64,000 nt of DNA from Escherichia coli. Lineage in GTDB: Bacteria; Pseudomonadota; Gammaproteobacteria; Enterobacterales; Enterobacteriaceae. Under the pieces are notes generated by a model that ran no database searches, was not told the DNA's origin, and was given only the letters and a program-made list of their open reading frames with translations. The stretch lies in assembly GCF_041886205.1 (NCBI RefSeq), contig NZ_CP169029.1. One strand, given 5' to 3'. Each line of letters opens with the position of its first letter. The first letter of the stretch is position 1. The position numbers and the translations under genes are program-made. Positions 14,866 through 54,705 of the stretch are shown one piece after another.

Positions 14866-14941
14866 TGGCTCCTCTGACTGGACTCGAACCAGTGACATAC
14901 GGATTAACAGTCCGCCGTTCTACCGACTGAACTACAGAGGA
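14866..14941 (-). tRNA. asnV: tRNA-Asn (GUU)
   Basis: Reverse complement equals TCCTCTGTAGTTCAGTCGGTAGAACGGCGGACTGTTAATCCGTATGTCACTGGTTCGAGTCCAGTCAGAGGAGCCA. Confidence 0.95.
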
Positions 14942-17274: not shown

Positions 17275-17350
17275 TGGCTCCTCTGACTGGACTCGAACCA
17301 GTGACATACGGATTAACAGTCCGCCGTTCTACCGACTGAACTACAGAGGA
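17275..17350 (-). tRNA. asnU: tRNA-Asn (GUU)
   Basis: Sequence identical to the other three tRNA-Asn copies. Confidence 0.95.
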
Positions 17351-19098: not shown

Positions 19099-19174
19099 TC
19101 CTCTGTAGTTCAGTCGGTAGAACGGCGGACTGTTAATCCGTATGTCACTGGTTCGAGTCCAGTCAGAGGAGCCA
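19099..19174 (+). tRNA. asnW: tRNA-Asn (GUU)
   Basis: 76-nt tRNA-Asn sequence ending ...GAGGAGCCA. Confidence 0.95.
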
Positions 19175-23558: not shown

Positions 23559-23872
23559 AATGATCCTGTTTGTACTGTCTTTTTATAATTAGTATGGAAA
23601 AGGTAACTCACATTGCCGTCGATCTATAAACGAACCTTATGAGACTACCTCGACAGAGCGCATCTGCAAATGATTTTATGGCTGATTAGCGGCAACATGA
23701 AAAATTCGATGGAAGATGAAAGCGCAGGAGTTGCTGGTGTTGTTTAAGGATTAAGCAGAGGACCCACAGGTTAGAGATATGAAACATAAAAGTCCGCATA
23801 TGCACAAAATGGCACCCTGATGAGTCTGATAGACTGCATTGCATTATAACCAGTAGGGAGGCGAGGTTAGGT

Positions 23873-23945
23873 ATGTTTTTAGCATCATTGTTGAGACGTA
23901 TTGCATTTAGTTACTACGATTATAAAGCTTATAATTTCAATATTG
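23873..23945 (+). pseudogene. yeeL: yeeL N-terminal 24 codons, separated from the rest by the IS66-family insertion
   Basis: ATG at 23873 with upstream AGGGAGG; frame continues across the 8-bp target duplication into the glycosyltransferase ORF at 26645. Confidence 0.5.
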
Positions 23946-23998
23946 GTAACCGGCTCATTTAAACCGTCTGGTCTGTTTCCTCCGGCTCTACAAAAATA

Positions 23999-24676
23999 AT
24001 GTCCATCATTTTTAATGGACACTATCGTATGAAACACCGGACCTGGATCACTGAAGCTTTACGTCTTCACTTTGAAGAACATTTACCCCGGGTTGTGGCC
24101 GGGCGTCGCCTGGGTGTACCAAAATCAACAGTTTGTAGTATGTTCGTGCGCTTTCGGAGAGCTGGCCTTTCGTGGCCTTTGCCCGCAGGCATGTCGGAGC
24201 AGGAACTTGATGCCTGCCTTTACGGACAATTTTCCACGGTACCAGTCGTACGTCCTGAAAGCACCGTTATATCCGAAGCCCCCGTGGTAAAAAAACGTCC
24301 CCGGCGGCCCAACTTCCCTTATGAGTTTAAAATCGCCTTAGTGGAGCAGTCACTGCAGCCCGGAGCCTGTGTGGCGCAGATCGCCCGGGAAAACGGAATC
24401 AACGATAACCTGCTCTTCAACTGGCGCCATCAATACCGGAAAGGTGGCCTGCTGCCTTCCGGAAAAAATATGCCGGCACTGCTTCCCGTGACGTTAACGC
24501 CGGAGCCGGATAATAAAATCCCGGCCCCCGCACAGGAACCAGAGCAGATAAATACACCGTCCGACAGTCTGTGTTGTGAGCTGGTTCTGCCGGCCGGAAC
24601 TCTCAGGCTTAAAGGTAAACTGACGCCGGCGTTATTACAGACACTTATCCGCGAAATAAAAGGGAGCAGCCACTGA
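23999..24676 (+). CDS. IS66-family accessory protein (TnpA-like, HTH); start codon uncertain
   Basis: C-terminal half ...GACVAQIARENGINDNLLFNWRHQYRKG... resembles IS66 Orf1; stop overlaps the next start (ATGA). Confidence 0.7.
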   Translation: MSIIFNGHYRMKHRTWITEALRLHFEEHLPRVVAGRRLGVPKSTVCSMFVRFRRAGLSWPLPAGMSEQELDACLYGQFSTVPVVRPESTVISEAPVVKKRPRRPNFPYEFKIALVEQSLQPGACVAQIARENGINDNLLFNWRHQYRKGGLLPSGKNMPALLPVTLTPEPDNKIPAPAQEPEQINTPSDSLCCELVLPAGTLRLKGKLTPALLQTLIREIKGSSH

Positions 24677-25023
24677 TGATATCTCTCCCTGCAGGTTCGC
24701 GTATCTGGCTGGTTGCAGGTATCACCGATATGCGAAATGGCTTTAACGGCCTGGCATCAAAAGTTCAGAACGTCCTGAAGGATGACCCGTTCTCCGGACA
24801 CCTGTTCATCTTCCGCGGACGCCGGGGTGACCAGATAAAAGTGTTGTGGGCTGACAGTGACGGACTGTGCCTCTTCACCAAACGCCTGGAGCGGGGCCGC
24901 TTCGTCTGGCCAGTCACCCGTGACGGCAAGGTGCACCTTACTCCGGCTCAGTTATCCATGCTTCTTGAAGGTATCAACTGGAAGCACCCGAAACGAACGG
25001 AACGCGCTGGAATCCGCATATAA
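24676..25023 (+). CDS. tnpB: IS66-family TnpB
   Basis: 115 aa: MISLPAGSRIWLVAGITDMRNGFNGLASKVQNVL... Confidence 0.85.
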   Translation: MISLPAGSRIWLVAGITDMRNGFNGLASKVQNVLKDDPFSGHLFIFRGRRGDQIKVLWADSDGLCLFTKRLERGRFVWPVTRDGKVHLTPAQLSMLLEGINWKHPKRTERAGIRI

Positions 25024-25042
25024 CCCGTTGTAAAGTGAGGAT

Positions 25043-26614
25043 ATGGACACCTCACTTGCTCATGAGAACGCCCGCCTGCGGGCACTGTTGCAGACGCAAC
25101 AGGACACCATCCGCCAGATGGCTGAATACAACCGCCTGCTCTCACAGCGGGTGGCGGCTTATGCTTCCGAAATCAACCGGCTGAAGGCGCTGGTTGCGAA
25201 ACTGCAACGTATGCAGTTCGGTAAAAGCTCAGAAAAACTTCGTGCAAAAACCGAACGGCAGATACAGGAAGCACAGGAGCGAATCAGCGCACTTCAGGAA
25301 GAAATGGCGGAAACGCTGGGTGAGCAATATGACCCGGTACTGCCATCCGCCCTGCGCCAGTCTTCAGCCCGTAAACCGTTACCGGCCTCACTTCCCCGTG
25401 AAACCCGGGTTATCCGGCCGGAAGAGGAATGCTGTCCTGCCTGTGGTGGTGAACTCAGTTCTCTGGGATGTGATGTGTCAGAGCAACTGGAGCTTATCAG
25501 CAGCGCCTTTAAGGTTATCGAAACACAACGTCCGAAACAGGCCTGTTGCCGGTGCGACCATATCGTGCAGGCACCAGTACCTTCAAAACCCATTGCACGC
25601 AGTTATGCCGGAGCGGGGCTTCTGGCCCATGTTGTCACCGGGAAATATGCAGACCATCTGCCGTTATACCGCCAGTCAGAAATATACCGTCGTCAGGGAG
25701 TGGAGCTGAGCCGTGCCACACTGGGGCGCTGGACAGGTGCTGTTGCTGAACTGCTGGAGCCGCTGTATGACGTCCTGCGCCAGTATGTGCTGATGCCCGG
25801 TAAAGTCCATGCTGATGATATCCCCGTCCCGGTCCAGGAGCCGGGCAGCGGTAAAACCCGGACAGCCCGGCTGTGGGTCTACGTCCGTGATGACCGTAAC
25901 GCCGGTTCACAGATGCCCCCGGCGGTCTGGTTCGCGTACAGTCCGGACCGGAAAGGTATCCATCCACAAAATCACCTGGCCGGTTACAGCGGTGTGCTTC
26001 AGGCCGATGCTTACGGTGGTTACCGGGCGTTATACGAATCCGGCAGAATAACGGAAGCCGCGTGTATGGCTCATGCCCGGAGAAAAATCCACGATGTGCA
26101 TGCAAGAGCGTCCACCTACATCACCACGGAAGCCCTGCAGCGTATCGGTGAACTGTATGCCATCGAGGCAGAGGTCCGGGGCTGTTCAGCAGAACAGCGT
26201 CTGGCGGCAAGAAAAGCCAGAGCCGCGCCACTGATGCAGTCACTGTATGACTGGATACAGCAACAGATGAAAACACTGTCGCGTCACTCAGATACGGCAA
26301 AAGCGTTCGCATACCTGCTGAAACAGTGGGATGCACTGAACGTGTACTGCAGTAATGGCTGGGTGGAAATCGACAACAACATCGCAGAGAACGCCTTACG
26401 GGGAGTGGCCGTAGGCCGGAAAAACTGGATGTTCGCGGGTTCCGACAGCGGTGGTGAACATGCGGCGGTGTTGTACTCGCTGATCGGCACATGCCGTCTG
26501 AACAATGTGGAGCCAGAAAAGTGGCTGCGTTACGTCATTGAACATATCCAGGACTGGCCGGCAAACCGGGTACGCGATCTGTTGCCCTGGAAAGTTGATC
26601 TGAGCTCTCAGTAA
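25043..26614 (+). CDS. IS66-family transposase TnpC
   Basis: 523 aa with leucine-zipper N-terminus, CxxC zinc-finger motifs and DDE core; C-terminus [16 protein letters not shown]. Confidence 0.9.
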
Positions 26615-26644
26615 ATATCAATACGGTTCTGACGAGTCGCTTAC

Positions 26645-27632
26645 CAATATTGAAAAAACAGACTTTGTTGTCATCCATATTCCCGATCAGATTGGCGATG
26701 CTATGGCCATCTTTCCTGTTATTCGGGCGCTTGAATTGCATAAAATTAAGCATCTTTTAATTGTAACGTCGACAATTAATTTAGAAGTCTTTAATGCGCT
26801 TAAACTTGAACAGACTAAATTAACATTAGTCACAATGACTATGCAGGATCACGCAACATTAAAAGAAATAAAAGATTTAGCAAAGAACATAACACAGCAA
26901 TACGGTACGCCGGATCTTTGCATTGAGGGGATGCGTAAAAAGAACCTGAAAACGATGTTATTTATCAGTCAGTTGAAAGCAAAAACGAATTTTCAGGTTG
27001 TTGGTATAACCATGAATTGCTTCTCCCCTTTGTGCAAGAACGCGTCCCGTATGGATCAGAAACTCCGGGCTCCCGTACCTATGACATGGGCATTTATGAT
27101 GCGTGAGGCGGGTTTTCCAGCAGTCAGGCCAATATATGAATTGCCACTAAGTGAGGATGTACTCGATGAGGTGCGCGAGGAAATGCGATCGTTAGGATCT
27201 TACATTGCGTTCAATTTAGAAGGTAGCTCGCAGGAACGTACATTTTCATTATCGATTGCAGAAAATCTAATAGCAAAAATTTAAAGTGAAACAGATATAC
27301 CAATAGTGATCGTTCATGGACCCAAAGGTGAAGATAAAGCCAGGGCATTAGTGGATTGTTATAATAATGTCTACCGTTTATCCTTACCACCCTCGATTAA
27401 ACGTTCAGCAGCAATCATAAAAGATGCTTATATCGCAATAACTCCTGACACCTCAATATTACATATGGCAAGTGCCTATAATACCCCTGTTGTTGCAATT
27501 TATGCTGATTACAAAACGCGATGGCCCGCAATGGCCGATGTCTCGGAGTCAGTCGTCGTTGGGCAAAAAATTGACAATATAAGTCTGGATGAATTCGCAA
27601 AGGCATTAAAAAGTGTTTTGGCGAGAATATGA
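26645..27632 (+). pseudogene. yeeL: Glycosyltransferase family 9 (heptosyltransferase-like) pseudogene: IS-interrupted plus in-frame TAA
   Basis: N-terminus ...KTDFVVIHIPDQIGDAMAIFPVIRAL; C-terminal ...ITPDTSILHMASAYNTPVVAIYA motif; track ORFs 26703-27284 and 27306-27632 are in the same frame separated by TAA at 27282. Confidence 0.75.
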
Positions 27633-35283: not shown

Positions 35284-35359
35284 TGGCTCCTCTGACTGGA
35301 CTCGAACCAGTGACATACGGATTAACAGTCCGCCGTTCTACCGACTGAACTACAGAGGA
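35284..35359 (-). tRNA. asnT: tRNA-Asn (GUU)
   Basis: Identical 76-nt tRNA-Asn sequence. Confidence 0.95.
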
Positions 35360-36350: not shown

Positions 36351-36440
36351 GGAGAGATGCCGGAGCGGCTGAACGGACCGGTCTCGAAAACCGGAGTAGG
36401 GGCAACTCTACCGGGGGTTCAAATCCCCCTCTCTCCGCCA
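36351..36440 (+). tRNA. serU: tRNA-Ser (CGA)
   Basis: GGAGAGATGCCGGAGCGGCTGAACGGACCGGTCTCGAAAACCGG...CTCTCCGCCA; long variable arm, anticodon loop CUCGAAA. Confidence 0.93.
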
Positions 36441-46192: not shown

Positions 46193-46285
46193 AAAAAAAA
46201 GCCGGCATCATGCCGGCCCAAAAAATATAAACAAGACGATAAAAGGCTAATAACGGAAGCATCATGACACAGAATAATAAAAAGG
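46193..46285 (-). ncRNA. rseX: Candidate small RNA (RseX-like), defined by a minus-strand intrinsic terminator
   Basis: GCCGGCATGATGCCGGC hairpin followed by T8 on the minus strand at about 46193-46217; no ORF upstream on that strand; 5' end not determined. Confidence 0.35.
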
Positions 46286-54618: not shown

Positions 54619-54705
54619 AACACATCAGATTTCCTGGTGTAACGAATTTTTTAAGTGCTTCTTGCTTAAGCAAGTTTCATCCCGACCCCCTCAGGGTCGG
54701 GATTT
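54619..54705 (+). ncRNA. dsrA: DsrA small regulatory RNA
   Basis: AACACATCAGATTTCCTGGTGTAACGAATTTTTTAAGTGCTTCTTGCTTAAGCAAGTTTCATCCCGACCCCCTCAGGGTCGGGATTT matches my recollection of DsrA, including the terminator stem-loop. Confidence 0.9.

Follow-up and report, generated by a model that had tools for sequence, protein, structure and literature searches.

In a recent ancestor of the present Escherichia coli strain, a full-length, intact copy of the IS66-family element ISCro1 almost certainly transposed into the yeeL pseudogene, at nucleotides 66-73. The element, which is complete at 2,699 bp, occupies positions 23946-26644 (+ strand) of the window (the whole 64-kb stretch of DNA that was analysed), where it is the only ISCro1 copy. 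It is a known element and the event is a routine one.

Boundaries of the element and the empty site

The earlier note had described identical octamers directly flanking an element of about 2.7 kb with imperfect terminal inverted repeats, and re-reading of the sequence bears out this description. The 8-bp target-site duplication, CAATATTG, is found at 23938-23945 (left copy, corresponding to yeeL nt 66-73) and at 26645-26652 (right copy). Both copies directly adjoin the element with no gap, and their identity ends at exactly 8 bp, the next bases being T versus C on the 5' side and G versus A on the 3' side. The octamer occurs four times in the 64-kb window.

The element begins with GTAACCGGCTCA and ends with CGAGTCGCTTAC, and 18 of the first 26 bases at its left end (IRL, 23946-23971, + strand) match the reverse complement of its right end (IRR, 26619-26644, - strand, ending in TTAC-3'). 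These termini are of the IS66 type, namely imperfect repeats of approximately 20-30 bp with a 5'-GTAA start (GTAACCGG on the left and GCTTAC on the right), and the duplication is likewise of the 8-bp length that characterizes the family, with two copies of CAATATTG at this locus and a single one at the empty site. An automatic repeat finder runs the inverted repeat into the flanks because CAATATTG is itself a palindrome. Independent confirmation of the boundaries is provided by 17 other genomes, in which a 2,699-bp element with the same end bases is flanked by lineage-specific 8-bp direct repeats. Indeed, the IRL forms the exact element boundary in all 18 yeeL insertions, the right end is the same at the other yeeL insertions, and these termini recur at 16 insertion sites, 15 of them other than the present one.

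The host gene was correctly named as yeeL, since the duplication corresponds to nt 66-73 of the K-12 gene. When mapped onto K-12 yeeL, the 5' fragment (nt 1-73) lies at 23873-23945 and the 3' fragment (nt 74-1053) at 26653-27632, both on the + strand, the latter containing ORFs at 26703-27284 and 27306-27632; in other strains, too, a split yeeL is annotated by PGAP. The uninterrupted allele, which the earlier note had proposed for comparison, demonstrates that the duplication is genuine: when the target is reconstructed with only one CAATATTG, it matches a contiguous stretch in 5,189 of 5,426 complete E. coli genomes, and its sequence is 100% identical in K-12 MG1655. Because the boundaries recur, and because the contiguous site with one CAATATTG is so widely represented, chance can be excluded.

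The yeeL gene is annotated as a glycosyltransferase family 9/heptosyltransferase-like pseudogene. The K-12 gene carries the annotation 'internal stop' (translation ...AKI*SETD), and the same TAA stop is located at 27282-27284 in the 3' fragment. Judged from its sequence, yeeL was already a pseudogene when ISCro1 inserted. Since this internal stop predates the insertion, no gene was destroyed and the event was therefore most likely neutral; no phenotype is to be expected of the yeeL::ISCro1 allele.

Transposition genes and proposed mechanism

The full three-ORF organisation of the IS66 family, with all ORFs intact, had been proposed for the element, and it is upheld by NCBIfam scores well over the cut-offs for all three proteins and by IS66 domains in Pfam. 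The three genes, all on the + strand, are tnpA (23999-24676; 225 aa as called), encoding an accessory DNA-binding protein (NF038385, E=1e-88), tnpB (24676-25023; 115 aa), encoding an IS66 Orf2-type accessory protein (NF033819, E=5e-38), and tnpC (25043-26614; 523 aa), encoding the DDE transposase (NF033517, E=1.8e-143). As is usual in the family, the genes for the helix-turn-helix protein TnpA and the IS66 Orf2 protein TnpB are positioned upstream of tnpC and overlap each other, in this case by one base, the tnpB ATG sharing a base with the tnpA TGA (TGATG, 24674-24678). An AGGA ribosome-binding site is present 5 nt upstream of tnpC. In Pfam, the IS66-type DDE domain of TnpC (DDE_Tnp_IS66, residues 186-472, covering model positions 1-283 of 284, E=1e-102) is preceded by the leucine-zipper and zinc-finger regions (LZ_Tnp_IS66, 46-121; zf-IS66, 128-172) and followed by DDE_Tnp_IS66_C (479-516). 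Further ORFs inside the element that run antisense or in another frame, such as 25635-26105 on the - strand and 25194-25709 on the + strand, were taken to have arisen by chance within coding sequence that is GC-rich. Rfam and tRNA scans covering the window returned nothing within or adjoining the element.

The length of TnpA had seemed unusual for an IS66 element, possibly reflecting either an N-terminal extension or a miscalled start. The NF038385 model (190 positions) aligns to residues 13-206 of the protein, and NF047595, the NCBIfam model of the short TnpA form (113 positions), aligns to residues 102-219 only. Pfam detects HTH_Tnp_1 at 102-159 and, weakly, HTH_23 at 25-57, and the AlphaFold model places helices at 16-54 (with a further one at 67-75) and at 108-147, residues 1-11 having a pLDDT of 33. 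The protein is thus composed of two helix-turn-helix domains, followed by a short C-terminal beta/helix tail. Furthermore, the N-terminal region is conserved in homologues of 204-229 aa with 56-65% identity. The subgroup to which this TnpA belongs is thus characterised by an extra helix-turn-helix domain at the N-terminus, conserved and roughly 90 aa long. The extension is real and is the norm for the subgroup; a miscalled or fused ORF, or an anomaly of the present copy, is ruled out by the fit to NF038385 and by the conserved homologues. Uncertainty attaches to the first 10 codons only, where the start may be the ATG at 23999 or that at 24029 (giving 215 aa), and PGAP makes the same 678-nt call as that used here (WP_001339397.1).

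Direct observation extends to where the element starts and ends, its duplicated target, the uninterrupted site in other genomes, the intactness of the three genes and the occurrence of numerous separate insertions by near-identical copies; the following steps can be added from established knowledge of DDE transposases and of the IS66 family. TnpC, through its leucine-zipper, zinc-finger, catalytic and C-terminal domains, would recognise the imperfect, GTAA-initiated terminal repeats, presumably assisted by TnpA, as a DNA-binding protein with a double helix-turn-helix, and by TnpB, the production of which would be translationally coupled to that of TnpA via the TGATG overlap. The element ends would be joined to a target cut with an 8-bp stagger, and gap repair would then generate the CAATATTG direct repeats. 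What TnpA and TnpB each contribute is known solely from the genetics of IS679, reportedly the work of Han et al. in 2001.

Identity and abundance of the element

Many E. coli chromosomes and plasmids carry copies to which the element is 100% identical over its full length, and the PGAP label of these copies reads 'IS66-like element ISCro1 family transposase'. Copies covering at least 80% of the element are present in 1,492 of the 5,426 complete E. coli genomes and on 1,399 plasmids. ISCro1 was first named in Citrobacter rodentium ICC168 and is widespread in E. coli, Shigella, Salmonella and Klebsiella plasmids. In a scan of a species-representative genome collection, the exact left-end 26-mer matched no C. 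rodentium locus; similarly, blastn against the first 50 kb of the 54.4-kb plasmid pCROD1 found no copy of the element, and the annotation table of pCROD2 contains no IS66-family gene. Because these three comparisons yielded no copy, what E. coli carries may be an isoform of ISCro1 rather than the type element itself.

The 26-mer scan also speaks for the alternative that the element is not ISCro1 proper but another IS66 member, such as IS679 or an unnamed isoform, in which case the kind of element would be right and its name wrong. The PGAP label 'ISCro1 family' reflects a family-level rule, and related elements of 94-95% identity, diverging in the first ~413 nt, do exist on plasmids. We nevertheless consider such a misnaming unlikely, as IS679 has a length of 2,704 bp rather than 2,699 bp. 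Moreover, an insertion of 2,699 bp with an 8-bp duplication in E. coli has been published under the name ISCro1 (PMC12115866), and in C. rodentium, where ISCro1 has expanded to 24 copies, IS679 is listed apart from it (PMC3072379).

Age and mobility of the insertion

The insertion had been proposed to be recent and the element to be probably still active, and population data favour both proposals. A search of 5,426 complete E. coli genomes did not find the exact yeeL::ISCro1 junction; seven near matches were all two-piece alignments that represent insertions at other positions. Strain 2013C-3181, in which the insertion looked identical by annotation, was considered as a carrier of the same insertion and rejected, as its duplication corresponds to yeeL nt 313-320 (ACACAGCA) and marks a separate event. 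An empty 3.4-kb flanking haplotype, essentially identical to the reconstructed window sequence, is common to many strains, the one base at which it departs from the query being an error in the query itself, and copies 100% identical to the element are found elsewhere. Because its sequence is identical to copies at many sites, the present copy is probably active, and the many independent sites at which near-identical ISCro1 copies reside constitute population-level evidence on transposition.

Recombination is frequent in E. coli and ISCro1 is common on conjugative plasmids, and the yeeL::IS allele might in principle have come from another strain, together with its flanks, through homologous recombination or horizontally. 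This seems very improbable, as no donor allele with the same junction is found in the 5,426 genomes; furthermore, the perfect duplication implies that the allele arose by transposition anyway, and only the lineage of the event would differ. An old, fixed insertion that marks a lineage and contains an inactive element is scarcely credible. A small clade may share the insertion, the source genome and its relatives lying outside the 5,426-genome collection, and intact ORFs are by themselves no proof of activity, but the missing junction, the empty yet essentially identical 3.4-kb flanks, the complete identity to copies residing at unrelated places on chromosomes and plasmids, and the perfect duplication all speak against an old and inactive element. 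A recent transposition within the lineage of this strain remains the preferred reading.

Recurrent insertion of ISCro1 in yeeL

In the 17 other genomes, ISCro1 occupies 15 further positions, all between nt 1 and 782 of yeeL, with insertions in either orientation, and these copies are 97.4-100% identical to that of the window. Each insertion is flanked by a perfect 8-bp duplication where it is not rearranged. Two control genes contained no ISCro1 insertions. A bias in orientation was suggested by a first search, which returned seven insertions, all in the orientation seen in the window; the addition of a query with the inverted IS end contributed ten in the opposite orientation, and the apparent bias was thus a consequence of query design.

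The yeeL region, AT-rich and dispensable, has repeatedly received ISCro1 and other insertion sequences. Positions 3 and 6 of the duplication show a weak A/T preference at ISCro1 target sites. Targeting may be non-random, with a weak, roughly palindromic preference (A/T at positions 3 and 6, with G/C favoured at 1 and 8) and, on a regional scale, a bias towards AT-rich DNA; together these would turn the 1-kb yeeL pseudogene into a true hotspot. We regard the chances of this as evenly balanced. Target choice and mechanism are poorly studied in the IS66 family, and to our knowledge neither a target motif nor a regional preference has been described for it. The recurrent yeeL insertions offer a natural data set on this target choice.

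Taken alone, the insertion is of little importance, being one further copy of a common mobile element in an already dead gene. Its junction, not seen in any of the 5,426 complete genomes, makes it usable as a strain-specific marker. The insertion also indicates that ISCro1 continues to move in present-day E. coli populations. This mobility matters because approximately 1,400 plasmids, most of them conjugative, carry the element, and because plasmid fusion and altered expression of fimbrial genes have been reported as its effects (PMC12115866, PMC8764528).

Comparison with known IS66-family elements

The closest match is ISCro1 itself, with which the present element shares the 2,699-bp length, the 8-bp duplication, the tnpA-tnpB-tnpC order and 100% nucleotide identity to ISCro1-annotated copies; the insertion site is the sole detectable difference from these PGAP-labelled copies. 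ISEc8, an IS66-family element of E. coli O157 and of virulence plasmids, has the same TnpC domain set, but its nucleotide identity is only ~71%, across approximately one third of the element, within tnpC. IS679, an IS66-family element said to have been described by Han et al. in 2001 on plasmid pB171 of enteropathogenic E. coli, is reportedly the sole close relative with genetic proof that all three genes are needed for transposition. By description, it resembles the present element in its three ORFs, its imperfect, GTAA-initiated terminal repeats and its 8-bp duplication. In C. rodentium, it forms an entry distinct from that of ISCro1 (PMC3072379). Finally, tnpABC and 8-bp duplications (PMC6778807) are features that IS66 proper, of Agrobacterium Ti and At plasmids, and ISRel24-type elements have in common with the element in yeeL; their TnpA, however, is of the short form, whereas that of ISCro1 bears the additional N-terminal helix-turn-helix domain of ~90 aa.

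Structure of the element and its insertion site

The ISCro1 element occupies 23946-26644 (2,699 bp), between two copies of the octamer CAATATTG at 23938-23945 and 26645-26652, as determined by reading the sequence from 23800 to 26800 and by a script check. This repeat is exactly 8 bp long, since the bases immediately beyond the octamers differ; because the octamer is itself palindromic, the repeat finder extends its inverted repeat (entry I1) into the flanks. The element starts with GTAACCGGCTCA and ends with CGAGTCGCTTAC, and 18 of the 26 outermost bases match as an inverted repeat. Three intact ORFs are present on the plus strand: tnpA (23999-24676, 225 aa), tnpB (24676-25023, 115 aa) and tnpC (25043-26614, 523 aa). 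The stop codon of tnpA shares one base with the start codon of tnpB (TGATG), and an AGGA ribosome-binding site lies 5 nt ahead of tnpC. The identical octamers directly flanking a 2.7-kb element, the imperfect terminal inverted repeats and the three intact IS66-type ORFs described in the earlier note all held up on re-reading, script checks and NCBIfam and Pfam matching. The script check found no further ISCro1 copy within the 64-kb window.

The tRNA and RNA-family scans located four tRNA-Asn genes, tRNA-Ser(CGA) and the sRNAs RseX and DsrA (14866-14941, 17275-17350, 19099-19174, 35284-35359, 36351-36440, 46194-46283 and 54619-54705), which are standard E. coli backbone landmarks, none of them unusual.

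In order to rebuild the empty site, both flanks were joined through a single CAATATTG. The resulting 166 nt are uninterrupted in 5,189 of 5,426 complete E. coli genomes, which bears out the uninterrupted yeeL allele presupposed earlier, and the K-12 MG1655 site is 100% identical to the reconstruction. By this comparison, the duplication is genuine and the insertion is the derived state. The interrupted gene, labelled 'glycosyltransferase family 9 protein' by PGAP, is yeeL, situated between shiA and yeeJ, and the duplication corresponds to its nucleotides 66-73. The K-12 annotation gives yeeL as a pseudogene that contains an internal stop (translation ...AKI*SETD). The window carries the same stop (27282-27284); yeeL was therefore already dead before the IS arrived, and no phenotype is to be expected.

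Recency and proposed mechanism

When 400 nt across the left junction were searched against the 5,426 complete E. coli genomes, among which the source genome is not included, none of them gave an unbroken match. The seven best matches were two-piece alignments, indicating that ISCro1 is nearby in these genomes yet inserted at other positions. Furthermore, many strains match the rebuilt 3.4-kb empty locus from end to end, the lone mismatched base being a query artefact. The unique junction, the empty haplotypes, the 100% identity of copies elsewhere and the perfect duplication together favour a recent insertion and a working element, in agreement with the earlier suggestion of a recent and probably still active element; activity of this particular copy is inferred from sequence.

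Direct observation covers the element's ends and intact genes, the duplicated octamer, the empty site and the existence of many independent insertions. By analogy with DDE transposases and with IS679/IS66 genetics, which reportedly come from Han et al. (2001) and Gourbeyre et al. (2010), TnpC would bind the GTAA-initiated repeats and, with TnpA and TnpB, would join the ends of the element to target DNA whose strands are cut 8 bp apart; repair of the gaps would then yield the direct repeats.

Recurrent insertion in yeeL and a possible weak target preference

Near-junction matches in both orientations were retrieved and mapped onto yeeL (loci L001-L007 and L009-L018). The 2,699-bp element lies inside the first 782 nt of yeeL in 17 of the 5,426 complete genomes, at 15 positions that all differ from that in the window (position 377-384 is common to three genomes), seven oriented as in the window and ten inverted relative to it. 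A perfect 8-bp duplication of its own flanks every insertion, except for a rearranged 1.5-copy array in strain fS25a. Even were all 10,926 chromosomal matches independent and uniform over 5 Mb, a stretch of 782 bp should hold only about 1.7 of them. In a chimeric query of the same design, ISCro1 was found near 200-nt anchors in yeeJ and shiA in none of the genomes, the comparable figure for yeeL being the seven genomes of the first junction search. An orientation bias seen in that first search was rejected as an artefact of query design.

The yeeL pseudogene is a general IS sink, with a GC content of 38.7% as against 54-60% within the IS. Since it also hosts IS1, ISKpn26 and ISEc48 elsewhere, part of the effect is probably that of a tolerant, AT-rich 'sink' rather than of ISCro1-specific targeting. 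The strains concerned (loci H146, H147, L007, L010 and L018) carry IS1A (PSS-16), ISKpn26 (GPEC548), ISEc48 (98206) or IS1 (21310 and PS2Canimalfeces12). Escherichia sp. MOD1-EC7003 has an ISCro1 copy in the shiA-yeeL spacer (L035).

In fS25a (L009, 4724-8778; yeeL nt 73-80), an incomplete ISCro1 (nt 1343-2699) directly adjoins a full copy, with GAAAAAAC on both flanks, 7 bp away from the insertion site in the window. This composite would fit either insertion into a resident copy with a subsequent deletion or the remains of a tandem dimer.

To our knowledge, no target motif has been published for IS66-family elements. Among 47 oriented duplications pooled from yeeL (16) and from other genomes (31, including L021-L050), position 3 is A/T in 45 and position 6 in 40, position 5 is A in 26, and G/C is favored at positions 1 and 8 (C at the latter). 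This suggests a weak palindromic target preference of ISCro1. Only these two findings, the yeeL hotspot and the weak motif, are new, and mildly so.

The extended TnpA protein

The model NF038385 (190 positions) aligns to TnpA residues 13-206, and the short IS66-type TnpA model NF047595 (113 positions) to residues 102-219 only. From these alignments, the C-terminal half is the usual TnpA, while the ISCro1 protein differs from short IS66-type TnpA in an added N-terminal module of ~90 aa. Homologues of 204-229 aa from Pantoea, Erwinia, Yersinia, Klebsiella, Serratia and Edwardsiella share 56-65% identity over 94-100% of the protein, and invariant residues across positions 14-75 include R14, W16, L21, L23, H24, F25, W59, P60 and L61; by this alignment, the module is conserved. 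Pfam places HTH_Tnp_1 at 102-159 and, weakly, HTH_23 at 25-57, and most homologues carry PF13384 and PF01527 in precomputed annotations. An alignment-based AlphaFold model of moderate quality (mean pLDDT 63; two cores at 80-89) predicts two three-helix bundles, 16-54 (+67-75) and 108-147, with disordered linkers between them, and no structure for residues 1-11 (pLDDT 33).

PGAP starts tnpA at 23999. Many close homologues (214 aa) are called from the second Met, a position that is V or L in distant ones, so that the choice between ATG 23999 and ATG 24029 is uncertain by just 10 codons. Where called, these codons (MSIIFNGHYR, 23999-24028) are identical in homologues only ~60% identical overall, and their conservation could reflect a cis-acting subterminal DNA site rather than coding constraint. 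Of the earlier proposal of a lengthened TnpA or a miscalled start, the extension thus stands as an extra conserved module, and the true start may differ from the called one by those codons at most.

Identity, spread and comparison with known ISCro1

Megablast against the 5,426 complete E. coli genomes revealed full-length copies at 100% identity on many chromosomes and plasmids, labelled by PGAP as 'IS66-like element ISCro1 family transposase' with tnpA and tnpB. A copy spanning at least 80% of the element is present in 1,492 of these genomes and in 1,399 plasmids of the plasmid collection, the latter chiefly from Escherichia, with Shigella, Salmonella and Klebsiella, and in the majority conjugative. 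NCBIfam assigns TnpA to IS66_access_TnpA (NF038385, E=1e-88), TnpB to IS66_TnpB (NF033819, E=5e-38) and TnpC to transpos_IS66 (NF033517, E=2e-143); the Pfam domain set of TnpC is complete (LZ_Tnp_IS66, zf-IS66, DDE_Tnp_IS66 and DDE_Tnp_IS66_C).

The left end of ISCro1 is present on at least 27 contig ends of the MOD1-EC7003 draft (NZ_PTRE01; L024-L050), a number that suggests a large expansion. The exact left-end 26-mer is also present in gut metagenome-assembled genomes of unrelated phyla (labelled Segatella copri, Collinsella sp. and Lachnospiraceae), on short contigs (L021-L023) that are more likely mis-binned Enterobacteriaceae contigs than true hosts.

The name ISCro1 is taken from the PGAP labels and from its use in the literature. 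The element is a known one and its insertion in a dispensable pseudogene is a routine event: tnpABC and 8-bp duplications are features of IS66 (PMC6778807), C. rodentium ICC168 holds 24 ISCro1 copies (PMC3072379), and the ISCro1 reported on an IncHI1 plasmid is like the present element both in its length of 2,699 bp and in its 8-bp duplication (PMC12115866).
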